DNA of 64,000 bases, taken from the NCBI GenBank assembly GCA_964416195.1, contig CAYQDB010000003.1, positions 8,555-72,554 on the forward strand. The letters are read 5' to 3'. A program made the translations under genes and the position numbers. The notes beneath the pieces are model-generated. The model worked only from the letters and a program-made list of their open reading frames with translations, made no database searches and was not told the origin of the DNA. Position 1 is the stretch's first letter. Each line of letters starts with the position of its first letter. Shown piece by piece: positions 4,641-60,940 of the stretch. The DNA comes from an uncultured Ignavibacteriales bacterium (GTDB lineage Bacteria; Zixibacteria; MSB-5A5; GN15; FEB-12).

Positions 4641-5627
4641 TCACTCCTCCACCAATCCAATCCGTTGTTTATCTACTTGCTCCTTCACATAGTCGATTAT
4701 CATGTCTATCGATATAACCACTGCGAGGTCGGAGTTCTCTTCGTACGTGAAAGTATAATCCTCAGAAAGTAACTGCAGTACGAGTGAGCTATCTGCTAGT
4801 CTGGTTGAGTCTACAAGTTCAATAACAGCTGGTATCTTCGATAGCGGAATCGTGTGTGGCTTAATGATGGGATAGTGTTTGCAGATGATTCCGGCAAGTC
4901 TCATATCATAAGAAACTGTCAACTTGCCATCTGAAGTTTCCGAAACGTAAGCCCTTCTAATAAACACTGGACCGCCGCTATTTCCACCCAAAGAAACGCC
5001 ATCAATCAGATACATGCCCGGGATCAAGAACTTCGAACCTGCGAAGTAAACGTCCTGAGTAGCAAAGAAGGCAACCGAACCATCTCGGCAAATGGGTAGA
5101 TTCCACACATTCCCATACAAACCATAATCGGCATAATTGGGATAGCCAAAGAAGAGAACCTGTTCACCGTATTCAAGGTCGTTGTGACGGATTGTTTTTT
5201 CTTCCGTAATTGGATTAATGCTTAATGAGTCATGTGGGCGAGCGATTGGTATTGCAACAAAATCAGAATCCGCATCTTCAGGCATAAGAGCCTTAGTTGT
5301 GTTCTTATGGAAAGTGGCAAATGCTTCTACTGCAAAAATACGCCCTTCTGAATGTCTGAAATTGGGGAAACTTATCTTAAGTGAATCTTTGTTAACGTAA
5401 ATATGTCTATTAGTAATCAGATAAATATCTGGAAATGTCGAATCTATATCACATAGAACTCCGGTTCCGAAAGGATACCACGACTGACTGGCGGTATCGA
5501 ATGCCATAATTAGAGCGATAGGTTCCAACAAACTTTTAGACCTCCAATGTGGTTTCAGAAGTGTTCCTGCCGCAGCTGCTTGGACGAGCCATACTACAAG
5601 AACTACTGCAATTACCAGTTTTCTCAT
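4641..5627 (-). CDS. secreted trypsin-like (S1/S1C) serine protease
   Basis: Internal ATG at 5627 is preceded by AGGAGG and followed by the signal peptide MRKLVIAVVLVVWLVQAAAAG. Triad context: TNRHIY (His), DSDFVAIPI (Asp), GGNSGGPVF (Ser). The region looks AT-richer than its flanks. Confidence 0.75.
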   Translation of the reverse strand: MRKLVIAVVLVVWLVQAAAAGTLLKPHWRSKSLLEPIALIMAFDTASQSWYPFGTGVLCDIDSTFPDIYLITNRHIYVNKDSLKISFPNFRHSEGRIFAVEAFATFHKNTTKALMPEDADSDFVAIPIARPHDSLSINPITEEKTIRHNDLEYGEQVLFFGYPNYADYGLYGNVWNLPICRDGSVAFFATQDVYFAGSKFLIPGMYLIDGVSLGGNSGGPVFIRRAYVSETSDGKLTVSYDMRLAGIICKHYPIIKPHTIPLSKIPAVIELVDSTRLADSSLVLQLLSEDYTFTYEENSDLAVVISIDMIIDYVKEQVDKQRIGLVEE

Positions 5628-5658
5628 AATCCAAATCCTCCTACATACAGTTAGAGTT

Positions 5659-5916
5659 TTATTGATTCGTTTTGTTGTACCGTGGGTTCTTTCCCTTGTG
5701 AGAGTGTCGATACTGTTCAAGCCTATTCTCCTCCCACTCTTCAGCTGAATCCTTTGTTACAAAGGGGCCCGCCTTGTTTACAGAAGTAAAACGCTTTCCG
5801 TCTTGGCGATGTTGCTCTGCACGTTCGTCAAGAGACTGACTCGTAATCCCTACATAGACTAATTTCCCTTTTTCTCGAAGCTCATACCTGGCGAACCCTC
5901 TCTTTTTTGACATCAT
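5659..5916 (-). CDS. small stand-alone GIY-YIG nuclease-superfamily protein
   Basis: 85 aa. YEL-x7-VYVG spacing fits GIY-x10-YIG, followed by RAEQH (Arg/His) and EEWEENRLEQY...N (Glu/Asn). Lies 31 nt upstream of the protease on the same strand. Confidence 0.6.
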   Translation of the reverse strand: MMSKKRGFARYELREKGKLVYVGITSQSLDERAEQHRQDGKRFTSVNKAGPFVTKDSAEEWEENRLEQYRHSHKGKNPRYNKTNQ

Positions 5917-6329
5917 AGTCTCCTATAGTTTAATTAAGTGTGACTTTTTGTTTAATTAACCAATCCAAGATAGCCTTTCGTAAAGAATACCAAACGCTAT
6001 TATAGGTGTTTTTTCTCTAACCCATAATCCCATACATTGCAATAACTTAGAGCTGAGACAAGCATACATAAAATGCGCATTTGTGCAGCGAATCTGAACA
6101 ATTGAAAAGTCTATTAATGTAACCACTATTCCAGTAACCACTTACGAACCGATCGGTTGTGATTGAATATAAGACCGCAAGACAGTAATTTTTTGGATGG
6201 CCGTAATCTTTTGGAAATTATATGATTAGAGAGGATTTTCTTAAGGGAGCCCAATAATGGGTAGCTCTTTGTAAATACTGGATGGACGGTTGGCCCACAG
6301 CTCTGGGAGTGTTGAAAAAGTCACATTTT

Positions 6330-6939: not shown

Positions 6940-9735
6940 ATGGAGTCTTTGGGAACATTCAGGAGAAAACGTGATTGCTTGGGGTTTGTCCTCTCTGCGA
7001 CTCTCGTTGCCGTTCTGATGGTGGCAACAGTCCCGGTTTATGGGCAGTTGACAAGTGAAGATATAGCTGTCCTGGAAGAACAAGGCAGGGAAGAGGGCTG
7101 GTCTTTTACGGTCGGCGAGAACCCTGCTACTCAGTATTCGCTCGATCAATTGTGCGGTTTGAAGGAGCCGGATAATTGGCGTGAAGGTGCCCGCTTTGAT
7201 CCCTGTAAGCCGGGTCGGGGCCTTCCGGTGTCATTCGATTGGCGGGATTCGGCTGGTTGTACGCCGGTGAAGGCTCAAGATGGCTGCGGAAGCTGCTGGG
7301 CGTTTGGAACGGTGGGGCCTCTTGAATGCAACATCAAGATCAGAGATGGTGTGACAGTGGACCTGTCAGAACAGTGGCTGGTAAGCTGTAATCGTGATGG
7401 GTGGGATTGTGATGGTGGCTGGTTTGCGCATGACTATCATGAGTGGAAGACGGATGATTGCGATAGTACCAGGGCAGTTTTGGAAGCCGATTTTCCGTAT
7501 GTTGCTTGGGACGCTCCATGTAGTTGTCCCTATCCTCACTCCTATGGCATAGAATCCTGGGCCTATATCGGCGATGCATATAGTGTTCCAAGTGTTGCGG
7601 CTATGAAGCAGGCGATTCTGGATTACGGTCCCATCTCCGTCGCTGTTTACGCCAATTCAGCTATGCAGGCGTACACTGGCGGTGTATTCAACGGCTGTTC
7701 GGGCGGTACTGTCAATCACGCCATTACTCTTGTTGGCTGGGATGATAACCAGGGGACGGACGGCGTTTGGTTCATGCGCAATTCATGGGGCCCCGGCTGG
7801 GGTGAAGGTGGCGGATACATGCGCATTCCCTATGGCTGCTCCAGTATCGGTTATGCTGCCTGTTACGTGAACTACATCACAGTGCGGAATATCTCTTTTG
7901 AGTATCCCAATGGAATCCCCACGAGCGTTATTCCAGAAGAGACGACTGTATTCGAGGTGGTTGTGAATGGCGTTGGGGGTGGAACACCAGTACCAGGCAG
8001 TGGGCAACTTCATTATGCCATCAACGGCGGATCGGTCCAAACCGAGTCGATGATGGAGAAATTGCTCAATCACTATGAGGCGACTTTGCCAGAGCTTACC
8101 TGTGGTGACCGGTTGGAGTTCTATATCAGTGTAGAGGAGTCTACCGATGGAAGGGTATATGATCCCGATCCCAGCTCCCCTAACGTGGCCATTCCGGCTA
8201 CTAACCTGATTACAGTTTTTGAGGATAACTTTGAAACCAACAAAGGATGGACAGTGTCAGGCGATGCAGTCGACGGACAGTGGGATCGCGGAGTTCCGGT
8301 CGGCGGCGGCGATCGCGGTGACCCGACAACCGATTTCGACGGTTCCGGGAGATGCTATCTCACCGACAACGTGGATGGCGATTCCGATGTTGACGGCGGG
8401 ACAACAATACTGACCTCTCCTGTCTTTGATCTCTCAGATGGTAACGCGCAGATACATTATGCCCGCTGGTACTCGAATGATTTCGGCAGTACTCCCCACA
8501 GCGATGTCTTTGAGGTATACATATCGAACAATAACGGCGGTAATTGGGTCCTTGTTGAAACTGTGGGGCCTACCGAAGAGGCTTCCGGTGGCTGGTATGA
8601 ACACGCTTTCTGGGTGAGTGACTTTATCACACCTACTACTCAGATGCGGCTGCGCTTTGACGCGTCTGACCTGGGTGATGGCTCTGTTGTTGAAGCCGGT
8701 ATCGATGATGTTAACATTACAGTATATGAGTGCGGGGTTTCGACGCCGCAGATCATCACCGTGGCTCTTCCCGATTGGACAATCAATAGCCCATATTCCC
8801 AGCAGTTGCAGGCAATGGGGGGTACCGGGACACTGACCTGGATTGACGAGTACGGTGATCTTATAGGAAGTGGCTTGATGCTCTCTTCTGCCGGTCTGTT
8901 GTCCGGGACTCCGGTCTCTACCGGGCAAATCTCATTCACTGCGCAGGTGACGGATGAAGCCCTTGAATCTGACGAAAGACTCTTCAGCTTTTTCATTAAC
9001 GCTGCGCTGGTCATTGTTACAGATTCGCTACCAAACTGGACAATTGATCAAGCCTATAGTGAGCAGTTGCAGGTAACCGGTGGCACCGGGATAAAGGTCT
9101 GGTCGGATAGGAACGGCGATCTCAGCGGGACGGGTTTGAGCCTGTCCATGACCGGAGTGCTATCGGGTGTGCCTGGTGTGGCATCAGTCATAACTTTTAC
9201 GGCTCACGTGAGCGATGATGGGGGAGACACTGAAGATAAACCCTTCTCGTTTACGATAAACCCTGCTGTAGCAATTACTACCGACTCGCTTCCGGCTGGT
9301 ACCGAGGGTGATCAGTATTCAGAGCAGCTTGAGGCCAGCGGGGGCACGGGCACAAGGACCTGGGATGACAAAGACCATGACCTCGAAGGAACCGGAATCA
9401 GTCTTTCACCAGCCGGTCTCCTTTCCGGAACACCGATTGACACCGGTACGGTTAATTTCACCGCACAGGTTGAAGACATAGCTGGCAGTACCGATGAGAG
9501 GCTGTTTACTCTTATCATCGGACCGTCGTACATCTGCGGTGACGTTGACGGCAGCGATTCCGATCCAAATGTCGCTGACGTAACCTACCTTGTTGATTAT
9601 CTCTTTTTGGGTGGGCCACCACCACAGCCTATAGAAGCGGCCGATGTCGATGGTGCAAATGGTGTGAACATTGCGGACCTGACTTACTTAGTGAACTACC
9701 TGTTTGGAGAAGGGGCCGAATTGAACTGCCCCTGA
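6940..9735 (+). CDS. secreted papain-like (C1A) cysteine protease with beta-sandwich module, four Ig-like repeats and C-terminal dockerin-like domain
   Basis: ATG at 6940 precedes a signal peptide. Catalytic motifs: QDGCGSCWAFG, VNHAITLVGWD, NSWGPGWGEGGY. Four repeats of LP.WT....YS.QL...GGTG...W. C-terminus has two DVDG...V(N)(I/V)AD(L/V)TYLV.YLF segments. Confidence 0.85.
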   Translation: MESLGTFRRKRDCLGFVLSATLVAVLMVATVPVYGQLTSEDIAVLEEQGREEGWSFTVGENPATQYSLDQLCGLKEPDNWREGARFDPCKPGRGLPVSFDWRDSAGCTPVKAQDGCGSCWAFGTVGPLECNIKIRDGVTVDLSEQWLVSCNRDGWDCDGGWFAHDYHEWKTDDCDSTRAVLEADFPYVAWDAPCSCPYPHSYGIESWAYIGDAYSVPSVAAMKQAILDYGPISVAVYANSAMQAYTGGVFNGCSGGTVNHAITLVGWDDNQGTDGVWFMRNSWGPGWGEGGGYMRIPYGCSSIGYAACYVNYITVRNISFEYPNGIPTSVIPEETTVFEVVVNGVGGGTPVPGSGQLHYAINGGSVQTESMMEKLLNHYEATLPELTCGDRLEFYISVEESTDGRVYDPDPSSPNVAIPATNLITVFEDNFETNKGWTVSGDAVDGQWDRGVPVGGGDRGDPTTDFDGSGRCYLTDNVDGDSDVDGGTTILTSPVFDLSDGNAQIHYARWYSNDFGSTPHSDVFEVYISNNNGGNWVLVETVGPTEEASGGWYEHAFWVSDFITPTTQMRLRFDASDLGDGSVVEAGIDDVNITVYECGVSTPQIITVALPDWTINSPYSQQLQAMGGTGTLTWIDEYGDLIGSGLMLSSAGLLSGTPVSTGQISFTAQVTDEALESDERLFSFFINAALVIVTDSLPNWTIDQAYSEQLQVTGGTGIKVWSDRNGDLSGTGLSLSMTGVLSGVPGVASVITFTAHVSDDGGDTEDKPFSFTINPAVAITTDSLPAGTEGDQYSEQLEASGGTGTRTWDDKDHDLEGTGISLSPAGLLSGTPIDTGTVNFTAQVEDIAGSTDERLFTLIIGPSYICGDVDGSDSDPNVADVTYLVDYLFLGGPPPQPIEAADVDGANGVNIADLTYLVNYLFGEGAELNCP

Positions 9736-10222
9736 TTAGCGTTTCACTTCAGGCAGCCGTTTATTCATCTCTGCTGAGTAATGGGCGTTCGGGCCAACGA
9801 GCAGAGCTATGATATTTCCAAGCAACCCATTGATTGGCTGTCAAATAGGCGCAACACATCAAGTATTACATTAGCAGTGAAGTAACCACATGTAGCCGGC
9901 ATCGAGGCGAACAGGCAATCCTTTAGGGTCTGTTCAATTAATTAGTTTTCCTGATTTCGTCTTTAGGAAATCTTTATGAAAAAAAGGGGGTATCTTGACT
10001 GATGGATTATGGGCATATGCTTATAATGCGTCGGCAATGATTATGTTAGGAGGTAACAGGGTTGGTCAGTCCGAGATATCCTGGACGAGTAGGAAGGCTG
10101 CCCAGGAAAAGCCGTGAAAACGCTGTTTGTTTGTAAGGTGCTGTGAATAGAAGGGGGTGAAATCGAGATGGCAGAAATGAATATGTACATGGAGAATGAT
10201 TAGGCCATAAAGGAGATAGGCG

Positions 10223-10438
10223 ATGGCAGAGATGAATAAACAACGGTATGGACCAAGTGGATACTGTATCTGCCCGAAGTGTGGTTACAGAAAACCCCAC
10301 GGGAGGGGTGTCCCCTGTCAGGAAGAGCGCTGTCCTAAGTGCAGAGGTAAGATGGTTCGGGAAGGTGGCCTGCACCACATACAGATCATGGAAGGACAGA
10401 AAAAAGCCGCACAGCGGAAGAATAAAAACGGTGAGTGA
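10223..10438 (+). CDS. small zinc-ribbon protein (CxxC...CxxC)
   Basis: 71 aa with [30 protein letters not shown]. Good SD (aaaggag) upstream. Confidence 0.55.
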
Positions 10439-10559
10439 TTTGTGAAGCTGTTGCCTAAAGGATCAGAAGATCGAATCAAACGGGCGGGACTTGCTATCGT
10501 TTCTGTTGAGATGTACCTTGAGAAAGTTACATGGAACCGTGTACCGGAGGCTATAGCAA

Positions 10560-11045
10560 TTGCAGGAGATTCAGTATCGACCGATAGGCATCATACATTC
10601 GCCATTCCAACAACCCCACGGGGCGCCGATCCAGCCGCGAGCAGCAGAGGGTGTCCAAGGCACGGTTGAAGTGTTCGATGAATTCAAGGAGGGACTGGCC
10701 GACCTCGATGGCTTCTCACACATCATTCTGGTTTACCATCTCCACTTGTCGGATGGCTATGCGCTAAAAGTGAAGCCGTTTCTCGATGATACTCGTCGCG
10801 GCCTTTTTGCTACCCGCGCCCCTCGGCGACCGAACCCGATCGGCATTTCTGTTGTTCCTCTCAGGAAGATAGACGGCGACACGCTGTACATAACAAATGT
10901 GGACATAATTGAAGGCACGCCGCTGCTGGATATCAAGCCGTACGTTCCTGAGTTCGACAGGGAGGTAGACATACGGGTTGGATGGCTTACGGGCAAATCC
11001 CACCGTGTCAAAGACACGTTTTCCGATGACCGGTTCAAGAAGTGA
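10560..11045 (+). CDS. trmO: tRNA (t6A37-N6)-methyltransferase TrmO (YaeB/TsaA-like)
   Basis: IGIIHSPF, FSHIILVYHLH, RRPNPIGISVV and GTPLLDIKPYVPEFD motifs. TTG start with GGAGG 9 nt upstream. Confidence 0.8.
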   Translation: MQEIQYRPIGIIHSPFQQPHGAPIQPRAAEGVQGTVEVFDEFKEGLADLDGFSHIILVYHLHLSDGYALKVKPFLDDTRRGLFATRAPRRPNPIGISVVPLRKIDGDTLYITNVDIIEGTPLLDIKPYVPEFDREVDIRVGWLTGKSHRVKDTFSDDRFKK

Positions 11046-19499: not shown

Positions 19500-19965
19500 T
19501 GTTACACTTCGACTCCGAAACTGTGTCATAAATCGCAATTCACGCTTTCTCATGGTGGCGTCAGGCGTCTCTGCCTGACGCTTGCACGACGTATTGGTGT
19601 ATTGCGTATTCACTTGTGGCTGTCGGGCAGAGACACCCGACAGCACCTTGTAAGCTCAGGACAGGCAGGGCTTTTGACCTACGGGGATTGTTGGGGCAGA
19701 TGTGGACATCTGCCACCCACGATACTCGCCTTTGGCGTACTGCCCACAGTACACGGATGTCATTCCCGCGAAAGCGGGAATCCAGGTACTTAACGTTGAG
19801 AAAAGAGACACGAATGGATTCCTGCTTCCGCAGGAATGACGGGCGAGTAGCCTTATTGAGTCAGGTGCAAAAGGAACCTGAGCTACTAGGGCAGATGTGG
19901 ACATCTGCCGCATACAAGCAAGAAGGGTATGACAACATAGGCGAATTGGCGAGCCGAACACGGAA
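19500..19965. repeat. intergenic array of at least six unrelated perfect hairpins (REP/MITE-like)
   Basis: Hairpins at 19558-19581 (9 bp), 19620-19643 (8 bp), 19695-19714 and 19890-19909 (identical ggcagatgtggacatctgcc), 19762-19781 (attcccgc gaaa gcgggaat) and 19818-19837 (attcctgc ttcc gcaggaat). Confidence 0.7.
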
Positions 19966-19966
19966 A

Positions 19967-20029
19967 ATGAAATACTCCAAGTGCGGACATGAGGAAGATA
20001 AGGTCATAGGCAGCAAAAGTGGATATTGA
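19967..20029 (+). pseudogene. decayed duplicate of the nrdR 5' end (20-codon remnant ORF)
   Basis: 19967-20005 matches nrdR 21115-21153 at 35/39 nt. Remnant MKYSKCGHEEDKVIGSKSGY versus NrdR MKCPKCGHEEDKVVDSRPS. The first zinc-ribbon Cys is lost. Confidence 0.65.
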
Positions 20030-20972
20030 AATCCTGGGAACGGAGTCTCTGGGGGTCAGGGGGCTTTCGTGTTTTGTCAGAGCCGGAAATCAAAGAATAC
20101 TGATCGATCCGGGTATTGCCTTAGGTTACATCCGCCACGGGTTGCTGCCGCACCCTTTTCAGGTAGCCGTTGACGAAAGGATACAGAAGAAAATCGTGCA
20201 GAGATGGTCTGACGCTACGGATATAGTCATCAGCCATTTTCATGGAGACCATGTTCCCCTTGCGGATGCCAACCCGTATCAGTTCAATATCAGGAAGGTA
20301 ACCGGATTGAATCCGCACGTCAGGATATGGACAAGGAGTCTGTCGCATCTCTCAATGGTGCAAAAACGAAGAGCGGAGTCCCTTTCCACAGTATTACGCA
20401 CTGATCTGTTACCGGCGGAAGGGACCACACAGGGAATAATGACTTTTTCCGGGCAGGTATGTCATGGCGAAAAAAGCAGCCATCTGGGAACTGTAATAAT
20501 GACCAGGATTGAGGAAGATGGTGTGTTTGTGCACGCTTCTGATATTCAGCTTCTCAACGACGAAGCGATTTCCATAATACTGTCCTGGAAACCTGATATT
20601 GTATTCGCTGCCGGACCGCCTCTCTACCTGTACCACAAGGTTTTCAAAAGCAAAATGAGAATAGCCTGGCATAATGCCAGAATTCTTTCAGAGCGGGTTG
20701 GCATTTTAATTCTTGATCATCACTTGATGAGGAGTTATGAAGGGATTACATGGCTGAAGCGTCTATCGGTGGAGACAGGGAACAAGGTTATCTGCGGAGC
20801 GGACTTCATGGGGAAGCCGCGGATGTTGCTCGAAGCCAGGCGCAGGGACCTGTACAAGGATATGCCTGTCCCGTCCGGCTGGCATGAAGCCTATGGCAGG
20901 GGTGAGGTAAGCACTGATGCTTATTGGAGGTCAGCAAAGAGACTCTACAAGGAGATGAGGCTAAGCGACTAA
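20019..20972 (+). CDS. MBL-fold metallo-hydrolase, archaeal UPF0282-like
   Basis: SHFHGDH motif. The N-terminus LGTESLGVRGLSCFV....RILIDPGIALG..R.GLLPHP recalls the UPF0282 family. GTG start overlaps the nrdR remnant ORF. Confidence 0.65.
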   Translation: MDIEILGTESLGVRGLSCFVRAGNQRILIDPGIALGYIRHGLLPHPFQVAVDERIQKKIVQRWSDATDIVISHFHGDHVPLADANPYQFNIRKVTGLNPHVRIWTRSLSHLSMVQKRRAESLSTVLRTDLLPAEGTTQGIMTFSGQVCHGEKSSHLGTVIMTRIEEDGVFVHASDIQLLNDEAISIILSWKPDIVFAAGPPLYLYHKVFKSKMRIAWHNARILSERVGILILDHHLMRSYEGITWLKRLSVETGNKVICGADFMGKPRMLLEARRRDLYKDMPVPSGWHEAYGRGEVSTDAYWRSAKRLYKEMRLSD

Positions 20973-21114
20973 GGAAGTAGCGTAGGTCGAAGCCCCGTGG
21001 TTTCGACAAAGATATGAGACTTTGACGTGTGACCTACATGAATAAAGAGATTACCCACAGCAAAGCTGTGGGGTACCTCTGGTGTGTGAACGAACAATCA
21101 TGATTGGTTACTGA

Positions 21115-21567
21115 ATGAAATGCCCTAAGTGTGGACATGAGGAAGATAAGGTCGTGGATAGCAGGCCGTCACAGGATGGCCGGGCGGTGCGCCGTCGCCG
21201 TGAATGCCTGAAGTGCCACGAACGCTTCACGACATACGAGTATGTTGAGCACGGCACATTAACCGTCCTCAAGTCCGACGGCCGTAGGGAGCCGTTTGAC
21301 CGCAATAAAATCCTGACCGGCATCAAGCTGGCCTGCAACAAACGCCCGGTGACCGGCCAGCAGATGCAGTCAATGCTGGACAGTATCGAGGCCGAGCTCA
21401 GCGCCCGTTTTCGCACTGACGTCACCAGCAAGGAGATCGGTGAGGTGGTTATGCAGAAACTACGCGAGGTGGACGAGATCGCCTATGTCCGCTTTGCGTC
21501 GGTATACCGCCGTTTCCAGGATGCGGCTGAGTTCCTTGAGGAGATCAAGAAGCTGCTCGACAAGTAA
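21115..21567 (+). CDS. nrdR: transcriptional repressor NrdR
   Basis: MKCPKCGHEEDKVVDSR...RRRRECLKCHERFTTYE zinc ribbon plus ATP-cone. Confidence 0.95.
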   Translation: MKCPKCGHEEDKVVDSRPSQDGRAVRRRRECLKCHERFTTYEYVEHGTLTVLKSDGRREPFDRNKILTGIKLACNKRPVTGQQMQSMLDSIEAELSARFRTDVTSKEIGEVVMQKLREVDEIAYVRFASVYRRFQDAAEFLEEIKKLLDK

Positions 21568-22535: not shown

Positions 22536-22564
22536 TTGACAATCAGACTGCCCAAGGCTAAATT
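22536..22564 (+). promoter_or_regulatory. sigma70-type promoter (TTGACA-N17-TAAATT) upstream of the truncated tRNA-Gly copy
   Basis: TTGACA at 22536-22541, a 17-nt spacer, TAAATT at 22559-22564, about 20 nt before position 1 of the tRNA sequence. Confidence 0.45.
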
Positions 22565-22584
22565 GCATCAGGTAATATTGGATA

Positions 22585-22630
22585 GCGGGCGTAATTCAGT
22601 GGTAGAATGCAAGCTTCCCAAGCTTGACGC
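22585..22630 (+). pseudogene. truncated tRNA-Gly (nt 1-46 only); left direct repeat of the islet
   Basis: 46/46 identical to 25313-25358. The T arm and 3' acceptor strand are absent. Confidence 0.85.
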
Positions 22631-22793
22631 TACCAGAACAAGTCTAATTGTCTGCCATAACTCCAAGTCTTTCAAGGGGGAACGCCAATATTGAGATCAA
22701 CCCATCTCCGATAATTGGGGCTATATAAGACAAGCCCCAAAGAGATGAAGCCGGAGAATTAGTAGGTGGTTTTTGGTTTGCCGACTCGCCTAC

Positions 22794-22825
22794 AAAAAAG
22801 CCAACAGTTAACGAGTGCTGTGGGC
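22794..22825 (-). terminator. rho-independent terminator of the islet operon
   Basis: The minus strand reads gcccacag-(10-nt loop)-ctgttggc (7/8 bp) followed by tttttt, about 20 nt after the stop at 22844. Confidence 0.5.
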
Positions 22826-22843
22826 TTTCTGTTATCTGTTTAT

Positions 22844-23266
22844 TCACCAGTTGCCGGAATCGACAATTTGCTGCTGTTGCTTTCGATCTGCATACCAATG
22901 TCCATTCCATAGAATTCGCCGGTATTTGTATTCCTCATTATCGCTGTTAGCGTATCTGATGCTGAATGTACGCTCACCGTCAATGCGGTGTCCTACAGCA
23001 TCAACCACAGTGCCGACAAATACCATTGGCGATTGGCTATTAACACGATAATACAGCTTGACTCCAGGATAGATTCGAGGTTCACACCATCTGGACTGTT
23101 CAACAGCAGAGAGGGTGTGCTGTGATTTTTCTACTTGTGGTTTACTGGTTTGTGGTTTGGTATTCTGTACATTGTAGCCCGTTATTGCTGAAAAAACAAT
23201 AAACGCCAATACTGCAGCTATAATAAAAAGCCAGCCTGTTGCTGAGGGATTCTTATATTGTTTCAT
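22844..23266 (-). CDS. hypothetical N-terminally anchored protein (islet ORF4)
   Basis: ATG at 23266 with an agagg SD. MKQYKNPSATGW followed by a TM helix. No family recognised. Confidence 0.55.
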   Translation of the reverse strand: MKQYKNPSATGWLFIIAAVLAFIVFSAITGYNVQNTKPQTSKPQVEKSQHTLSAVEQSRWCEPRIYPGVKLYYRVNSQSPMVFVGTVVDAVGHRIDGERTFSIRYANSDNEEYKYRRILWNGHWYADRKQQQQIVDSGNW

Positions 23267-23279
23267 TGTCAAACCTCTG

Positions 23280-23672
23280 TTAAAGAATAGTCCAATTGTT
23301 AGGATTGTGAGGATTGCCGCCATCCCATACCACTTTACAATCCGCCACCGAAGAATCATAAGCAGCACCGTTCACATAAAGTATCCAGTATCCTGTAACA
23401 GTCCACGTATACTTACTACTGTCTTTATTGATGACAGTAATGGTGTCTATTGCACCATGATATTCCATATTATAATCCCACGGAACAGGAGTTTTGTGTA
23501 AGTCCCGCATCATGTCTTTATATACACGAGCTATAAATTTGTTGACAACTACTGTTGCGTCATCTGTGGTAGGCGGATGTGGCACATATCTGTTATAAAG
23601 CCAAGACCAAGCAGCAATTTGACTTATTATTGCTACCACTGCCAGTACTACAATCCATCTTGTTTTCATCAC
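23280..23672 (-). CDS. hypothetical N-terminally anchored protein (islet ORF3), paralogue of ORF1
   Basis: TM helix, PPTTDDA, C-terminal GGNPHNPNNWTIL (compare ORF1 GRNPAISHNWRIL). Confidence 0.55.
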   Translation of the reverse strand: MMKTRWIVVLAVVAIISQIAAWSWLYNRYVPHPPTTDDATVVVNKFIARVYKDMMRDLHKTPVPWDYNMEYHGAIDTITVINKDSSKYTWTVTGYWILYVNGAAYDSSVADCKVVWDGGNPHNPNNWTIL

Positions 23673-23691
23673 GACCTCTTAATTTTGTTAT

Positions 23692-24156
23692 TTAAGGCAG
23701 GCTATAATGAGCCTCTGCGATTACATATTCTCCACTGCTGGCGGATGTCTTCATTTTTACACCATCTACATAAATCGACACATGCAAACCCACACATGCT
23801 GGATCCGTCAATTGAGCACTGACGTATAGAAAATTGCCTTTTATCGCTCCAAACGAATACGTCCAAGGTTCGTTCCTTTTGAAGTATGCTTCTTTTTGTG
23901 ATGTTCCACCATCAGCATTGGTGTAAGTAATAAAAACTTCAGAATATTCAGTATATCCGGTGCGGACCTCATATTCGATATTGTGTACTGTGTATTCGTC
24001 AACATAAGCAGAAACAGAGACATTTTCACTATATGCTGGTTTCTTGTTGTTGTGACCAGTACCAGTATGTGTCAAAGCTATGATGAATACTATAAAAACA
24101 GGTACGATAACGAGCCACAACAAAAAGGGAGTTTTTTTCTTTTGCTGTTTCATCAC
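23692..24156 (-). CDS. hypothetical N-terminally anchored beta-rich protein (islet ORF2)
   Basis: TM helix followed by YEV..G....V.ITYTNADGG..Q......PW.......VSAQ.......V.IYVDG, loosely MmpS-like by eye. Confidence 0.5.
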   Translation of the reverse strand: MMKQQKKKTPFLLWLVIVPVFIVFIIALTHTGTGHNNKKPAYSENVSVSAYVDEYTVHNIEYEVRTGYTEYSEVFITYTNADGGTSQKEAYFKRNEPWTYSFGAIKGNFLYVSAQLTDPACVGLHVSIYVDGVKMKTSASSGEYVIAEAHYSLP

Positions 24157-24620
24157 GACCTCCTTTCACCAATTGCTCGATTGCGATTGTCAACTGACAT
24201 AAGGCTGGTTCCCATTGAAAAATAAAGGATTCGCCAATTATGAGATATCGCCGGATTGCGACCCATCCATTGCATATCCAATACTAATGTTGTCGAATCT
24301 ACAACGGTATTACCCTTATCTTCGGACATCAAGAACCAGCCTTCGGCTCTCCACACATTATACTGCATCTTGGGATACAAATCTGCATCTCTCTTCGATA
24401 CTGTAAGACAGTAATGTGTGTAATAACCCTCCTCCAAACCAATACTTGCAGCCACAAGAGCAGAATCACAGAGCGTCTTCATTGCATTCACCGCATCTAA
24501 CGTTGTTGGTCGCAGTGGCATACCATACCAATATTGTGCTGTTACCAGCAGAACAACAGAAGCGACAATAGTAATAGCAGTCCACCAACCTGCTGAAAGA
24601 TGATCCTTATATTGTTTCAT
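24153..24620 (-). CDS. hypothetical N-terminally anchored protein (islet ORF1)
   Basis: MKQYKDHLSAGWW followed by a TM helix. 4-nt overlap with ORF2. Shares a 15-nt start region (cttatattgtttcat) with ORF4. Confidence 0.55.
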   Translation of the reverse strand: MKQYKDHLSAGWWTAITIVASVVLLVTAQYWYGMPLRPTTLDAVNAMKTLCDSALVAASIGLEEGYYTHYCLTVSKRDADLYPKMQYNVWRAEGWFLMSEDKGNTVVDSTTLVLDMQWMGRNPAISHNWRILYFSMGTSLMSVDNRNRAIGERRS

Positions 24621-24676: not shown

Positions 24677-24826
24677 TTATTTATTATTAAGTAGTAGCAT
24701 CTCCATTTCGTCAGCAATATCTTCAAGCTGCGCATACTGTTTGCTGGTGCCAAATTCTGATTCGGTTAAATGCACACGTAGACGTATTACCAGATTATCA
24801 AGTATTTTATACATTATTACTGTCAT
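24677..24826 (-). CDS. possible 49-aa small ORF upstream of the islet operon
   Basis: MTVIMYKILDNLVIRLRVHLTESEFGTSKQYAQLEDIADEMEMLLLNNK. Below the track cutoff. Preceded by a possible 27-aa basic ORF at 24829..24912. Confidence 0.25.
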   Translation of the reverse strand: MTVIMYKILDNLVIRLRVHLTESEFGTSKQYAQLEDIADEMEMLLLNNK

Positions 24827-25162: not shown

Positions 25163-25191
25163 TTGACTATATTGGAATGCGCCAATATAAT
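25163..25191 (+). promoter_or_regulatory. sigma70-type promoter (TTGACT-N17-TATAAT) inside the islet, pointing at the intact tRNA-Gly
   Basis: TTGACT at 25163-25168, a 17-nt spacer, TATAAT at 25186-25191, about 120 nt upstream of the tRNA. Confidence 0.4.
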
Positions 25192-25312
25192 ACACGCCTG
25201 TGCAACTTGACAGAGACGGCTTTGTGTATTTTTTTGTATATAGAGACATTTTGAGACGTCAAGTCTTGGAGATGAACAGTATCTCGAAGATGACGTTTCT
25301 TCTTGGAGACAA

Positions 25313-25384
25313 GCGGGCGTAATTCAGTGGTAGAATGCAAGCTTCCCAAGCTTGACGCCGTGGGTTCGAGTCCCATCGCCCGCT
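25313..25384 (+). tRNA. tRNA-Gly (anticodon CCC)
   Basis: 72-nt cloverleaf drawn by hand: acceptor gcgggcg/cgcccgc, D arm attc-agtggta-gaat, anticodon arm caagc-ttCCCaa-gcttg, T arm gtggg-ttcgagt-cccat. No encoded CCA. A T-run follows. Confidence 0.9.
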
Positions 25385-25402
25385 TTTTTTAATGGATGCG
25401 AC

Positions 25403-53777: not shown

Positions 53778-55697
53778 ATGCGCATCACTACTAACATGCT
53801 CACCGACCAAGTTGCCTACAATATGCAGCGTAATATCAGGCGCTACATGGAGATACAGACTCAGTTCTCTTCGGGACGAAGGATTAACACCCCGTCGGAC
53901 GACCCTGTCGGGACTCAGCGCGATCTTATGTATCGTACTGAGCTGGCCAAAGGCGAGCAGTACCGCAAAAACATCAGCCAAGGTCAGAATTGGATGCAAT
54001 CGTATGACAGCATCCTCTGCGACCTTAAGGATCTGTTTTCCAGCGGTAAGGAAATCGCGATCGATATGTCCAACGGTATCTACGATAGTGTGGCGCGCGA
54101 AGGTGCGGCCAACGAGATTGAGTCTGCTTTTAACCGACTGATCCAGTTAGCCAACAGTGAACTTGAAGGGAAATTCCTGTTTTCCGGTTTCAGGACCAGC
54201 ACGAAAGCTATCGTGGCTTCTGCCAATGGCGTGGTTTACGGAGGAGACGAGGGCCGGATTGAGTTCCAGATTGACTCCTCTTCACGCATGGGAGTCAACT
54301 TGACGGCTCAGGATGTTTTCCTTGCCTCTCTGTCTGTTATAGGCCAGAACGCTGATCTGAACCCGGTGATTATCAGTTCCACCTCATTGTCGGACCTCCA
54401 TAACGGGCAGGGAGTCGATCAGAGTCCAGGCACCTTTACCATTACCGATCAGAACCTGGGTATCGTTTCCACCATCGACGTGAGCGCCGCTGTCGATATC
54501 AATGACGTTCTCGCAACCATAAATACCCAACTGGCTGCCGACGGAATCACTAACCTTCAGGCTACGATCGGCCAGGAGAAGAACAATATCCTGCTGGATA
54601 CGACTCAGAACGGTCTCATATCGAACGTGACGACTCTGGACAAACTGAATAGCGGGACCGGTATTGACCTAACCCCCGGGAAGATACTCGTGACCGATGG
54701 TGGAACCATCAACGCCACGATCGATTTCTCTGGTTCTACTACCATCGGGGATATCATCACGGCCTTCAATACCCAATTGGCGGCGCAGGGAGCAGCCAAT
54801 GTCACCATGCAGATAAATGCCGCCAACACTGGCTTGGAGATCATTGACTCCAACGGGGCGCCGCTTGGTTTGAGCATTATGGAGGCTGACCTATCTGAGA
54901 ACACTGCCTCCAACCTCGGCATCCTGGGCGATGTCGATCCCATCCTGGTAGGGGGCGATCTTGACCCGGTAGTCAGCTTCAAAGTTGAAGAGATCACAGG
55001 CACAACGGCTACCGATCTGGGAATCATAGGCGAGTTTTCCGGGGATTTCGCCGGTACGGACCTTGACCCATTATTGCTTGCCACTTCGAACATAGCGGAT
55101 CTAAATGCCGGTGGTGGCTATGAGCTCGGTGAGATTGTCATATGCCAGGGGGATACCAGCCGAACTATTGATCTCTCCAGCCTCGCAATTGTCACTGTGC
55201 AGGACATACTGGATGCCATCAATGGTTGCGGCCTGGACATCACTGCCTCTATTAACGCCAATGGACAAGGTATTCAGATTGTCAACGATGATCCTACCCG
55301 ATCGTTAACCGTTGAGGACGTCCCCGGTGGCAGAACAACGAAGGATTTGGGAATCTTCGGCTCAAGTGACATGATGGGAACAATGCTGGTCCTCATGAAC
55401 TCCCTGCGCAACGATGATCAGGAAGGTACCGGACTGCTGTTACAGAACCTGGATGACAGCATGCAGCACTTGTTGAATCAGCGTGCGTCAGTGGGCGCCA
55501 AAGCTATGCGTCTCGAGGGTACCCACGCTCGTCTGGTGGATCTCGACATGAGCTTTATTAAGCTGCTCAGCGAAGTGGAGGACGCTGATATCACCAAGTT
55601 GGTCACGGACTTGGCAACCTACGAAAACAATTACAAAGCCTCGCTGATAGCAAGCTCCAAGATTATACAGTCGTCGCTATTGGATTTTCTGGAGTAG
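53778..55697 (+). CDS. flgL: flagellar hook-associated protein 3 FlgL, expanded (639 aa) with internal repeat modules
   Basis: Flagellin-type N-terminus (MRITTNM...SSGRRINTPSDDP) and C-terminus (RASVGAKAMRLE). The central part has three modules of about 75 aa with Flagellin_IN-like motifs. Confidence 0.8.
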   Translation: MRITTNMLTDQVAYNMQRNIRRYMEIQTQFSSGRRINTPSDDPVGTQRDLMYRTELAKGEQYRKNISQGQNWMQSYDSILCDLKDLFSSGKEIAIDMSNGIYDSVAREGAANEIESAFNRLIQLANSELEGKFLFSGFRTSTKAIVASANGVVYGGDEGRIEFQIDSSSRMGVNLTAQDVFLASLSVIGQNADLNPVIISSTSLSDLHNGQGVDQSPGTFTITDQNLGIVSTIDVSAAVDINDVLATINTQLAADGITNLQATIGQEKNNILLDTTQNGLISNVTTLDKLNSGTGIDLTPGKILVTDGGTINATIDFSGSTTIGDIITAFNTQLAAQGAANVTMQINAANTGLEIIDSNGAPLGLSIMEADLSENTASNLGILGDVDPILVGGDLDPVVSFKVEEITGTTATDLGIIGEFSGDFAGTDLDPLLLATSNIADLNAGGGYELGEIVICQGDTSRTIDLSSLAIVTVQDILDAINGCGLDITASINANGQGIQIVNDDPTRSLTVEDVPGGRTTKDLGIFGSSDMMGTMLVLMNSLRNDDQEGTGLLLQNLDDSMQHLLNQRASVGAKAMRLEGTHARLVDLDMSFIKLLSEVEDADITKLVTDLATYENNYKASLIASSKIIQSSLLDFLE

Positions 55698-55718
55698 GCC
55701 AGATTAAGGACAGAGATT

Positions 55719-56198
55719 ATGCTTGTACAAACTGTGCGATTTGGGCAGCTTGAGGTTCCTGAGAGCAAGTTGATCAGAATGCAGAAGCCGATACTGGGCT
55801 TTGAACGTCTTGGCCTTTACTGCCTGGTCGAGAGAGAGGAGTTTCGGCCGTTTCTCTGGCTGCAGTCGGTGGAGGATCCGGCGGTCGCTTTCGTTGTGGT
55901 CAACCCCCTTGTGTTCTTCGCAGATTACCGAATTGAAGTGCATTCCAACGAGCTTGCTGAGCTGATGATTACCCACACCGATCGTGTGGAGACGTATGTC
56001 ATTGTTACGATACCTGAGGATCCTACTCAGATGTCCGCCGATCTGCAGGGTCCGATTGTGATCAATACCGAAAACAACCGAGCTAAACAACTGGTGCTGG
56101 TCAACTCGGACTACCATATTGCGCACAGTATCTTCGATGCCATCCAGGGTGCAGGTGCGCCGGTAGTGGCGGTAGAAAAAGAGCCTGTCGGTGTCTGA
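55719..56198 (+). CDS. fliW: flagellar assembly factor FliW
   Basis: FGQLEV.ES.LI.....ILGFE.L......E......FLWLQS.ED..VAFVVVNP. About 150 aa. Confidence 0.9.
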   Translation: MLVQTVRFGQLEVPESKLIRMQKPILGFERLGLYCLVEREEFRPFLWLQSVEDPAVAFVVVNPLVFFADYRIEVHSNELAELMITHTDRVETYVIVTIPEDPTQMSADLQGPIVINTENNRAKQLVLVNSDYHIAHSIFDAIQGAGAPVVAVEKEPVGV

Positions 56199-57939: not shown

Positions 57940-57944
57940 AAGGA

Positions 57945-60659: not shown

Positions 60660-60707
60660 GGACTATCGGGCGCTGTTTTTTTCCTCAACCCCTCTCTCTG
60701 TTACCGG

Positions 60708-60734
60708 TTAAGCTGCTCAGTATTCTGCCGATTA
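60708..60734 (+). promoter_or_regulatory. sigma28 (FliA)-type promoter TTAA-N15-GCCGATTA upstream of fliC
   Basis: Compared by eye with the consensus TAAA-N15-GCCGATAA. Lies about 205 nt upstream of the flagellin ATG. Confidence 0.5.
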
Positions 60735-60940
60735 AGAACTTAGAAAAACCTTAATAAGGAAATGAGGGAAACTCAAAACCAAACAAAGGAGGAAAAGAAA
60801 CAAGTTTGTTGAGGGGTTAAATGGACCGTTAACTCGGGGCAACTACTCTAGACATTGGAAGTGACATATGTTGAGTATGTAACCAAAAACAAAGGGGGTG
60901 TATGATGAGACGTTAAAACAGTTCAAGGAGGAATGAGCAT

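Follow-up and report, generated by a model that had tools for sequence, protein, structure and literature searches.

What are the small membrane-anchored proteins encoded back to back beside a tRNA gene in an uncultured Zixibacteria-like bacterium, how did their genes come to lie there, and what might they do? We examined this locus in a 64,000-nucleotide stretch of DNA (the window), for which a preliminary description had reported a tight operon of such proteins at 22844-24620. Our preferred reading, to which we give a probability of about 0.55, is that the operon is envelope cargo of a mobile element kept in a decayed tRNA-Gly islet, with a role that may be of the exclusion type.

The operon and its tRNA-Gly(CCC) islet

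The operon lies inside an islet of 2,728 bp with a GC content of 0.40, compared with a background of ~0.51. The features of the islet and its borders are as follows.

22536-22564, plus strand: native tRNA-Gly promoter-like site (TTGACA-17-TAAATT; 10/12 in a promoter scan), now left driving only a tRNA 5' fragment
22584-22630, plus strand: attL, the left islet boundary, a 47-nt copy of tRNA-Gly(CCC) positions 1-47
22792-22832, minus strand: hairpin and U-run directly 3' of the ORF4 stop, the likely intrinsic terminator of the operon
22844-23266, minus strand: ORF4, 140 aa from ATG; anchor, Pro/Gln/Lys-rich linker and conserved, beta-rich C-terminal domain of ~85 aa
23280-23672, minus strand: ORF3, 130/129 aa; predicted N-terminal anchor and helix-and-four-strand ectodomain; paralogue of ORF1
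23692-24156, minus strand: ORF2, 154 aa from GTG or 153 from an ATG one codon in; TM anchor and MmpS-like beta-sandwich
24153-24620, minus strand: ORF1, 155 aa; predicted N-terminal anchor or signal peptide and helix-and-four-strand ectodomain
24677-24826, minus strand: ORF0, which heads the operon; 49 aa, small and acidic, no TM segment
24827-25311, no strand assigned: non-coding end of the islet, expected to hold the minus-strand operon promoter
25163-25191, plus strand: islet-borne promoter-like site for the intact tRNA (TTGACT-17-TATAAT; 11/12 in the promoter scan)
25312-25385, plus strand: intact tRNA-Gly(CCC) (ARAGORN; Rfam 67.9 bits), whose first 47 nt are the attR core and right boundary

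Recomputed coordinates agree with the four minus-strand ORFs of 155, 154, 130 and 140 aa described earlier, with a 4-nt overlap between ORF1 and ORF2 followed by gaps of 19 and 13 nt, and each of the four genes has a GGAGG/GAGG-type ribosome-binding site. The original view of a four-gene operon is right in that these genes are real and tightly spaced, but it overlooked ORF0; the four are genes 2-5 of a five-gene operon running from ORF0 to ORF4. The terminator hairpin (-13.3 kcal/mol, z=-2.4) is followed by UUUUUU and was overlooked by a simple terminator scan because its loop is 10 nt long. No competing long ORFs were found on the other strand of the operon region. As had been noted, ORF1-4 each have a basic N-terminal stretch followed by a single, strongly hydrophobic segment (19-residue Kyte-Doolittle maxima 1.97-3.0), and homologous domains in relatives sit behind lipoprotein or cleavable signal peptides. 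The products are predicted from these sequences and from structure models to be exported, or anchored with the N-terminus in and the C-terminus out, with small globular periplasmic domains. They thus look extracytoplasmic, in keeping with the envelope exposure first proposed for them.

The islet is flanked by a direct repeat that is identical at 47/47 positions (22584-22630 and 25312-25358). The region 22585-22656 scores as tRNA-like in Rfam (37 bits); we rejected the attL fragment as a working tRNA, as it has no T-arm and received no ARAGORN call. The promoter-like site at 22536-22564 aligns with the DNA that precedes tRNA-Gly(CCC) in three loci from Zixibacteria metagenome-assembled genomes (MAGs; L010-L012). 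In these loci the tRNA gene lies directly upstream of a DUF512 gene, and the window tRNA likewise adjoins a DUF512 gene. The conserved promoter region of the relatives aligns with the attL side of the window and not with the DNA upstream of the intact tRNA. Since related Zixibacteria MAGs keep the native promoter beside the tRNA, the islet is a true insertion. The exact empty site was not recovered in L010-L012, where the upstream neighbour differs among the relatives. On the other side, a related element, L020, has at its att end a homologue of 25189-25311 (68% identity over 164 nt to L020 789-947), and there the region precedes a tRNA-Gly(TCC)-like 5' half. By sequence comparison, the islet is inserted into the 5' part of tRNA-Gly(CCC) in a Zixibacteria-like chromosome and brought its own positions 1-47 together with the region upstream of them.

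When an element integrates into a tRNA gene it usually restores the tRNA 3' end; the arrangement here appears to be the reverse. Because the repeat corresponds to the tRNA 5' part, the islet supplies the promoter side of the intact gene. We found no integrase-sized ORF in the islet, and tblastn with the integrase of another related element, L003, gave no match across the window. An integrase elsewhere in the window was rejected with this single query, which a divergent recombinase could escape. The islet is best compared with CIMEs, the integrase-less, att-flanked remnants of integrative elements known from the streptococcal ICE literature. Like them it is short, has perfect direct repeats at a tRNA gene, lacks integrase and replication genes, and shows homology to larger elements that look autonomous. 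It differs from CIMEs in that its repeat is drawn from the tRNA 5' part (positions 1-47) in place of the usual 3' part, and in that its parent elements are small primase-helicase/ParA elements and not ICEs.

An MmpS-like protein and three unnamed families

The preliminary description saw no recognisable family in any of the four proteins, although it called ORF2 loosely MmpS-like. For ORF2 the likeness turned out to be real, whereas ORF0, ORF1/ORF3 and ORF4 do represent unnamed families. Scans of all five ORFs against Pfam, PHROGs, NCBIfam and PADLOC gave nothing significant, and no enzyme or toxin family was found in these databases, in keeping with the lack of such motifs noted at the outset. 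Direct PDB sequence searches with ORF1, ORF2 and ORF3 and profile searches with the ORF4, ORF1 and ORF0 families returned nothing meaningful, and word-index homology searches with ORF1 and ORF2 returned only the queries themselves. ORF2 alone did not match PF05423 (Mycobact_memb) at E<=1. We then used a concatenation of the four ectodomains as the query of an exhaustive search and examined the best 150 of 401 matches (E<=1e-3). Nearly all of these best 150 fell on the ORF2 segment, and 143 of 151 proteins re-matched ORF2 locally. When ORF2 was aligned with 44 relatives from the matches listed, 26 of the 45 members matched PF05423 (best 1.3e-9). Furthermore, the family profile matched PDB chains of MmpS5 and MmpS4 with E-values from 4.6e-7 (MmpS5, 8em5_A) to 0.023, a distant and transitive relationship.

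Structure prediction followed by Foldseek, which had been proposed as a check, pointed the same way. The AF2 model of ORF2 has eight strands (pLDDT 89), carries the family-conserved residues, and matches MmpS5 9mvz_A at E=5.3e-6 and 8em5_A at E=1.6e-5 with a TM-score of 0.83. The hydrophobicity maximum of 3.0 at residues 10-29 corresponds to a single N-terminal TM helix. Together, profile and model predict that ORF2 is a TM-anchored beta-sandwich with a clear MmpS fold. It shares with mycobacterial MmpS4 and MmpS5 (PF05423) a short basic N-terminus, one TM helix and an all-beta periplasmic domain of ~100 residues. It differs in its low identity to MmpS5 (16-19%), in its Zixibacteria-like rather than actinobacterial host, and in being encoded on a mobile-element remnant with no MmpL/RND partner found in the islet or among the large ORFs scanned. 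These were 10 of the 26 window ORFs of at least 300 aa, including both of at least 900 aa, and encode a papain-like protease, a TPR-glycosyltransferase, flagellins and others.

Among the matches listed, the wider ORF2 family consists mostly of stand-alone small proteins with diverse N-termini, including zinc ribbons and lipoboxes. The two closest relatives with usable context in this set both adjoin integrases, and one of them is flanked by an ImmA-like peptidase and a serine recombinase in DNA that resembles a prophage. Actinophages, too, encode small MmpS-fold proteins that are membrane proteins or lipoproteins. An IMG/VR scan with the ORF2 family gave one partial match, at a contig end, and a literature search on MmpS and prophages found nothing but matrix-metalloproteinase noise.

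ORF1 had no family or PDB match, and ORF3 had none in Pfam, PHROGs, NCBIfam, PADLOC or the PDB sequences. ORF1 does have a relative in another related element, L017 (4381-4791; E=9e-13, 31% identity over 137 aa), encoded immediately 5' of an ORF4-like gene, and ORF3 matches the same protein at E=3e-6. On this sequence evidence, ORF1 is the founding member of an unnamed family that also comprises ORF3 and this metagenomic relative; weaker relatives of ORF1/ORF3 may lie beyond the best 150 of the 401 exhaustive-search matches. A second structure model, built on a fusion of the ORF1, ORF3 and ORF4 ectodomains, is of low confidence (pLDDT 58). In it, ORF1/ORF3 appear as a TM anchor followed by a single long helix that packs against an antiparallel sheet of four strands, with a weak pLDDT of ~55-75. 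All Foldseek matches of this part were NTF2/cystatin-like and none was significant (best E=0.22, 2rgq, probability 0.96), and the VirB8 homologues CagV, TrwG and TraM appeared at non-significant E-values of 0.6-1.5. From sequence and model, ORF1 and ORF3 are predicted to form paralogous domains of one helix and four strands that are possibly NTF2-like. The predicted anchor and helix on a four-stranded sheet recall VirB8-like and NTF2-like TM-anchored domains, whereas the ORF1/ORF3 domain, with ~100 aa and one helix, does not reach the size of VirB8; neither the islet nor the related loci inspected contain type IV secretion or conjugation genes.

ORF4 had no match in Pfam or the PDB sequences, and, like ORF1 and ORF3, no significant structural match. 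It is modelled, with low confidence, as a small beta-barrel. Its relatives are P0004, P0005, P0007, P0008 and P0010 together with loci L003 and L017-L021, and the ratio of non-synonymous to synonymous differences (pN/pS) is 0.25-0.6 with saturated synonymous sites. We therefore regard ORF4 as a predicted small beta-rich domain of a small unnamed family that, judging from these loci, is carried by mobile elements. ORF0 is 45-53% identical to proteins encoded at L017 3779-3916 and L019 3741-3884 and has a further relative at L020 6234-6347; it lies upstream of ORF4-type genes in these elements too, with a pN/pS of 0.22-0.5. A PADLOC match of ORF0 to Cas2d (E=9.6e-4) was rejected, as it was absent from both relatives checked. 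For ORF1 against its relative, pN/pS is below 1 with saturated synonymous sites. The family alignments of ORF4, ORF0 and ORF1 had no match in IMG/VR, and the ORF4 family had none among GenBank phages or the plasmids of PLSDB. Two JGI metagenome contigs (L001 and L002) differ from the window at 1 and 0 positions over 4883 and 3164 nt, respectively; they represent the same population and thus offer no independent evidence of conservation for ORF2 and ORF3.

Shared modules and a variable slot in related elements

The operon had been read as two paralogue pairs, of which one held. The ORF1 and ORF3 ectodomains align with a Smith-Waterman score of 61, compared with 27.5 +/- 5.0 for shuffled sequences (z=6.6; none of 3000 shuffles reached 61), a BLASTP E-value of 9e-4 and, in the low-confidence model, the same order of secondary-structure elements. 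By these comparisons they are true paralogues with a common C-terminal domain. The likeness of ORF1 to ORF4 is confined to the first ~26 residues (1/3000 shuffles). At the DNA level, the identical 15-nt start reported earlier (24606-24620 and 23252-23266) is present and lies within a 37-nt stretch at 76% identity. On sequence grounds these two genes are not whole-gene paralogues and have only the signal-anchor region in common. Since proteins of the ORF1 family natively begin with MKQ(Y/L)K, it is ORF4 that seems to have gained this start. In addition, ORF2 and ORF3 are both headed by a second identical 15-mer, GAGGTCGTGATGAAA, which covers the RBS/start.

The homologues of ORF0 and ORF4 sit in small (~8 kb) elements from sediment metagenomes. 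These elements encode a primase-helicase, ParA and a DNA methyltransferase, and one contig adds a tyrosine integrase. They are incompletely assembled and unclassified as plasmid, virus or satellite; an inovirus-like origin was rejected, as they have no Zot/pI-type ATPase or rolling-circle Rep. The informative loci are these.

L003: ORF4 family, primase-helicase and tyrosine integrase, at the 3' end of tRNA-Asn
L019: ORF0 and ORF4 types and a prim-pol, with an empty slot between ORF0 and ORF4
L020: ORF0 and ORF4 types, ParA and methyltransferase, with an empty slot
L017: ORF0 and ORF4 types, with a lipoprotein gene and an ORF1-type gene in the slot; no integrase in the stretch examined
L021: a second integrase-less islet with an ORF4-type gene, flanked by a tRNA-Pro repeat

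In the window, the same slot between ORF0 and ORF4 is occupied by ORF1-ORF2-ORF3. Among these loci, ORF0 and ORF4 types occur together in L017, L019 and L020, and the tRNA neighbour is tRNA-Gly-like in L020, tRNA-Asn in L003 and tRNA-Pro in L021. The position of L003 at a tRNA 3' end indicates that the element family is not uniform in its mode of integration. The idea that the operon arose by module duplication needs revision accordingly. Modules were shuffled, as seen in the ORF1/ORF3 domain, the ORF1/ORF4 5' end and the ORF2/ORF3 RBS/start, but not simply in situ, since relatives of ORF0, ORF1 and ORF4 occur in the same order in elements and islets elsewhere. We propose that genes may be added to the slot and rearranged there through recombination at the short identical start regions.

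A more far-reaching version of this proposal is a long shot. It would make the ORF0 to ORF4 operon an undescribed cassette slot of small tRNA-targeting elements, in which genes for exported proteins (NTF2-like, MmpS-like, lipoproteins) are swapped at short identical RBS/start sequences. The slot would diversify exclusion or defence at the envelope and be useful enough to the host to persist in integrase-less islets, and integration of the parent elements would be unusual in targeting the 5' half of tRNA-Gly genes, for which they would supply a replacement promoter and 5' half.

Possible roles of the operon

If the operon is cargo, its proteins would act at the envelope for the element or the host, and the most plausible role would be to block related elements or phages through superinfection exclusion, entry exclusion or receptor masking. 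A role of this sort would account for the survival of the module when the integrase and replication genes were lost. The ORF4-type genes that survive in the integrase-less islet L021 and in the L017 stretch examined, where no integrase lies, provide weak context for this idea, as do the MmpS-fold proteins of actinophages and the integrase neighbours of the two closest ORF2 relatives with usable context among the matches listed. Prophage-encoded Sie (lactococcal) and Ltp-type membrane proteins are kept in lysogens and remnants. The operon products resemble these superinfection-exclusion/moron proteins in being small and element-encoded, with a predicted N-terminal anchor or lipobox and extracytoplasmic domain, and the closest ORF2 relatives among the matches listed occupy the integrase-proximal positions typical of such genes. 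They differ in that the operon combines four different ectodomains with ORF0, which has no TM segment. Known exclusion families gave no significant match to the operon; the best was PHROG 8545 ('Sie-like') against ORF2 (E=0.011, residues 3-82, mostly the TM region), and PADLOC returned nothing for ORF1-4. A lysis cassette (holin/spanin) was rejected, as no endolysin accompanies the module, which has been kept in a remnant.

Three other explanations were weighed. ORF2, perhaps with the other three proteins, could be an accessory subunit of a host inner-membrane transporter, as MmpS4 and MmpS5 are; these two proteins are required for siderophore and drug export in mycobacteria. The MmpS architecture and the match of ORF2 to MmpS5 by profile and fold favour this, and published work (PMC12122801) places MmpS5 between neighbouring MmpL5 subunits of the trimeric pump. 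However, the islet has no RND/MmpL gene and none of the 10 large ORFs scanned is an RND protein. Furthermore, ORF2 itself falls below a PF05423 match, its wider family is mostly stand-alone, and its gene lies on horizontally acquired DNA, with its two closest context-bearing relatives in the matches listed adjoining integrases. We consider a transporter subunit quite improbable. A structural or transfer function in the parent element is also unlikely. The proteins would then be virion-membrane or spike components of a small membrane-containing virus, or a VirB8-like scaffold of a minimal transfer apparatus, kept by accident of decay. Conservation of ORF0 and ORF4 in several elements of ~8 kb, the rest of whose genes are uncharacterised, would suit such parts, as would the non-significant fold matches of ORF1/ORF3 to the TM-anchored NTF2-like CagV, TrwG and TraM. 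Yet several elements lack slot genes (ORF1-3 types) and so can propagate without them, and the islet encodes no ATPase, capsid-like or secretion protein. IMG/VR gave no relatives beyond the partial ORF2 match, and GenBank phages and PLSDB plasmids gave none of the ORF4 family. The persistence of ORF4-type genes in L021 and L017 also speaks against structural parts, and argues for a benefit at the level of the host.

It is very unlikely that the ORFs are decaying, non-functional or spurious leftovers in a dead islet. The integrase and replication genes have indeed been lost, and ORF1-3 are found in one population only, so that there is no sequence variation by which to gauge selection on them. 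Against this, none of the five ORFs is broken and they are tightly coupled; their ribosome-binding sites are good, a terminator hairpin follows and the opposite strand is free of competing long ORFs. ORF0, ORF1 and ORF4 are conserved at the protein level with saturated synonymous sites, and ORF2 gives a confident MmpS model with the residues conserved in its family.

Current understanding would change only if a function such as exclusion or defence were shown experimentally. The analysis defines three unnamed protein families (ORF0, ORF1/ORF3 and ORF4), and an islet that apparently integrated into the 5' part of a tRNA and supplies its promoter is of separate interest. The MmpS fold, otherwise known from mycobacterial efflux and siderophore pumps, gains mobile members that have no transporter. 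If the cargo reading holds, the locus would be a compact case of decayed mobile elements leaving modules of envelope proteins in the uncultured phylum Zixibacteria.

A five-gene operon in the islet

The islet carries five small genes on the minus strand, in a region with a GC content of about 0.40 versus about 0.51 in the surroundings:

24677-24826, minus strand: ORF0, 49 aa, without a TM segment, 56 nt upstream of ORF1
24153-24620, minus strand: ORF1
23692-24156, minus strand: ORF2
23280-23672, minus strand: ORF3
22844-23266, minus strand: ORF4

The ORF map confirmed the four tightly packed ORFs of the preliminary description, with a 4-nt overlap between ORF1 and ORF2 and gaps of 19 and 13 nt further along. 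Each of the four has the short basic N-terminus and single strongly hydrophobic segment that had been reported, and also a Shine-Dalgarno-like site. The count of four genes has to be extended by one. ORF0, predicted by gene callers on the identical metagenome contigs L001 and L002, lies upstream, and the ORF4 stop is followed immediately by a hairpin (-13.3 kcal/mol) and then a U-run; the transcription unit is therefore a five-gene operon, ORF0 to ORF4.

The operon had also been described as two paralogue pairs. We found that the ORF1 and ORF3 ectodomains are indeed related (Smith-Waterman score 61, z=6.6, reached by 0 of 3000 shuffles; BLASTP E=9e-4), but that ORF1 and ORF4 resemble each other only over their first ~26 residues. 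This shared start does include the identical 15-mer that had been noted, together with a 37-nt stretch at 76%. The remaining ectodomain pairs scored at background level against shuffles, and ORF2 and ORF3 have an identical 15-nt RBS/start in common.

Searches of ORF0-ORF4 against Pfam, PHROGs, NCBIfam and PADLOC yielded no significant match for any of them. In 5.8 billion proteins, word-index searches returned no more than self-matches for ORF1 and ORF2, and two relatives for ORF4. The concatenated ectodomains were then compared exhaustively with 1.84 billion representatives using phmmer, and the best 150 of 401 matches were examined. Among the matches listed, ORF1 and ORF3 found only themselves, ORF4 found a handful of relatives, and nearly all the others fell on the ORF2 segment; in a local re-search 143 of 151 proteins matched ORF2.

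Predicted folds and related elements

The Pfam MmpS family (PF05423) was matched by 26 of 45 aligned family members, namely ORF2 and 44 relatives (best E=1.3e-9). A 43-sequence profile headed by ORF2 matched MmpS5/MmpS4 PDB chains, best 8em5_A (E=4.6e-7), with further matches to 9mvz_C, 8zkp_F, 9rgb_A, 9syj_D and 2lw3_A. The AlphaFold2 model from the 43-sequence alignment is an eight-stranded beta-sandwich (pLDDT 89), and its significant PDB neighbours in Foldseek were MmpS5 only (9mvz_A, E=5e-6; 8em5_A, E=1.6e-5, TM 0.83). ORF2 is therefore predicted to be a TM-anchored protein of the MmpS fold and a distant member, in keeping with the loose MmpS-like impression first given. The view that no family is recognizable thus fails for ORF2, and three protein families (ORF0, ORF1/ORF3 and ORF4) are unnamed.

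A fused model of the ectodomains of ORF1, ORF3 and ORF4, whose alignment included five ORF4 relatives as rows, was weak (pLDDT 58). In it ORF1 and ORF3 showed the same order, one long helix and then four long antiparallel strands, and ORF4 formed a small domain that is rich in beta structure and ends in a C-terminal helix. Foldseek gave no significant match for this model (best E=0.22), and the top non-significant ones were consistently cystatin/NTF2-like, including TM-anchored VirB8 homologues. An NTF2-like fold for ORF1/ORF3 is a lead rather than a result.

Loci with ORF4 relatives

L003: 12.9-kb contig (1-12936); 7.4-kb repeated unit, PriCT/AAA_25 primase-helicase, tyrosine integrase beside tRNA-Asn
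L019: prim-pol gene
L020: ParA, D12-class methyltransferase, ParB-like fragment
L017/L018: chromosomal context
L021: 2.4-kb islet, flanking 32-nt repeat of tRNA-Pro 3' end

In L019 and L020, the gene of a conserved protein of 78-118 aa precedes an ORF0 homologue, and this precedes the ORF4 homologue. The order in L017 is a 118-aa remnant, an ORF0-like gene, a 123-aa lipoprotein, an ORF1 homologue (E=9e-13 to ORF1, E=3e-6 to ORF3) and an ORF4-like gene. These gene orders thus indicate that ORF0 and ORF4 frame a putative slot, either empty or filled with exported-protein genes; in the window it holds ORF1, ORF2 and ORF3. An identical 19-nt RBS/start (AGGAGAAAGTAAAATGAAA) heads the lipoprotein and ORF1-like slot genes of L017 (3971-3989 and 4368-4386) and, with the 15-mer starts in the window, suggests that cassettes have been swapped at gene starts. 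MKQ(Y/L)K is the native start of the ORF1 family, and ORF4 relatives start otherwise; the 5' end of the window ORF4 appears to have come from an ORF1-type gene. In ORF4-domain and ORF0 comparisons pN/pS was 0.2-0.6 with synonymous sites saturated, consistent with purifying selection.

Two of these loci have further features. The L021 mini-islet (8399-10842; 2,412 bp) lacks an integrase, carries one gene of the ORF4 family and another of 343 aa without an assigned family, and its 32-nt flank repeat spans the 3' end of tRNA-Pro(TGG). In L003 a five-gene block occurs in two copies, 96-100% identical and spaced 7,376 bp, and the tyrosine integrase abuts the 3' end of tRNA-Asn(GTT). Pfam and PHROGs gave no match for any gene of the block (272, 92, 110, 56 and 290 aa), and L003 may be a case of small integrative elements that are in tandem or mis-assembled.

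Predicted location and proposed role of the operon products

Lipoboxes or classical signal peptides were found on proteins related to the ORF2 and ORF4 domains and on the extra L017 slot gene, supporting a predicted extracytoplasmic location for these ectodomains. Of the ORF2 relatives whose surroundings were usable, the two closest each adjoin a recombinase. P0009 has an ImmA-like M78 peptidase and a TM2 protein on one side and a large serine recombinase on the other, with an Amidase_3 gene near, and the gene for P0011 converges with that of a tyrosine integrase. In BFVD there are small membrane proteins or lipoproteins of the MmpS fold from phages of Mycobacterium and Gordonia. Furthermore, genes of the ORF4 type are retained in the L021 islet, which lacks an integrase, and in L017, where no integrase was seen in the stretch examined. 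Taken together, this makes accessory envelope cargo carried by mobile elements the favoured reading. From this context, the role that we consider most likely for the products would be superinfection or entry exclusion, or else receptor masking; no known exclusion family in PHROGs or PADLOC matched them.

A transporter-adaptor role is possible given the MmpS likeness. Mycobacterial MmpS5 is placed between MmpL5 subunits of an RND pump in PMC12122801, whereas for ORF2 there was no RND partner gene in the islet or among ten large window ORFs scanned (0/10), which argues against such a role. A structural or transfer function of the proteins in the parent element loses support because the slot genes are optional and no relatives turned up in the viral and plasmid collections searched. 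Non-functional remnants are unlikely, as the ORFs are intact and coupled, there is conservation, and the ORF2 fold is confident. The feature is best described as a mobile-element remnant carrying an operon of small, predicted exported proteins, and it belongs to a kind already known, accessory cargo of integrative elements that have decayed. The preliminary observation stands in extended form, and its interpretation is supported in part.

Insertion at tRNA-Gly(CCC)

22584-22630 and 25312-25358: perfect 47-nt direct repeat, tRNA-Gly(CCC) positions 1-47
25312-25385: tRNA-Gly(CCC), intact

The repeat copies are spaced 2,728 bp, with no integrase-sized ORF between them, and the L003 integrase as query found nothing similar in the whole window. 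The flanking DUF512/radical-SAM-like gene led to Candidatus Zixiibacteriota MAGs as the closest genomes found (59-64% identity), and tRNA-Gly(CCC) lies directly upstream of this gene in all three usable related loci. The sequence before the tRNA in these loci (TGTTGACAA...TAAATT) aligns with the left repeat copy of the window, at a promoter-like site (22536-22564), and not with the sequence preceding the intact tRNA, which indicates that the islet is an insertion inside the tRNA gene with a putative crossover within its 5' 47 nt. The upstream region of the intact tRNA is now islet-supplied and includes a TTGACT-17-TATAAT site (25163-25191); the predicted phylum-conserved native promoter appears to be left driving a 47-nt tRNA fragment.

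The tRNA-proximal end of the islet (25189-25350) is 68% identical to L020 across 164 nt (789-950 region). There, the homologous upstream region is followed by a tRNA-Gly(TCC)-like 5' half ending at the anticodon loop and then by unrelated sequence, an arrangement that fits an attP-type site of promoter plus tRNA 5' half.

Several other features were observed. The attL tRNA fragment with islet-left-end bases (22585-22656) scores 37 bits against the Rfam tRNA model (gathering score 29) and folds with a 7-bp acceptor-like stem and no T-arm; ARAGORN makes no call, and transcription of the fragment from the native promoter may still yield a tRNA-like RNA. The sequence immediately preceding the intact tRNA (25255-25309) contains an imperfect direct repeat of 18 nt and a hairpin (GGAGAT...ATCTC), the latter retained in L020 (~845-880) with bases altered on both sides; it could be a recombinase arm site or RNA-processing signal. 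A 50-nt direct repeat (84%; 19966-20015 and 21114-21163; spacing 1148 nt) copies the nrdR 5' end and flanks a metallo-beta-lactamase-fold gene (20019-20972), and may mark a second small insertion at a gene 5' end, ~1.5 kb from the islet. Upstream of this gene, an identical 21-nt palindromic repeat (GGGCAGATGTGGACATCTGCC; intergenic, 19694-19714 and 19889-19909) looks like a REP-type hairpin. A low-GC stretch (4641-6000; 0.414 at 5001-6000) overlaps a minus-strand trypsin-like peptidase gene with plus-strand neighbours. The 53778-63112 region has TPR-glycosyltransferase genes (582 and 904 aa) between two flagellin genes of unusual length (639 and 723 aa), which looks like a flagellin-glycosylation cluster.

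Elements that target tRNA genes normally restore the 3' part of the tRNA. Integration in the 5' half of a tRNA with replacement of its promoter would be a more unusual aspect of this islet than the operon.
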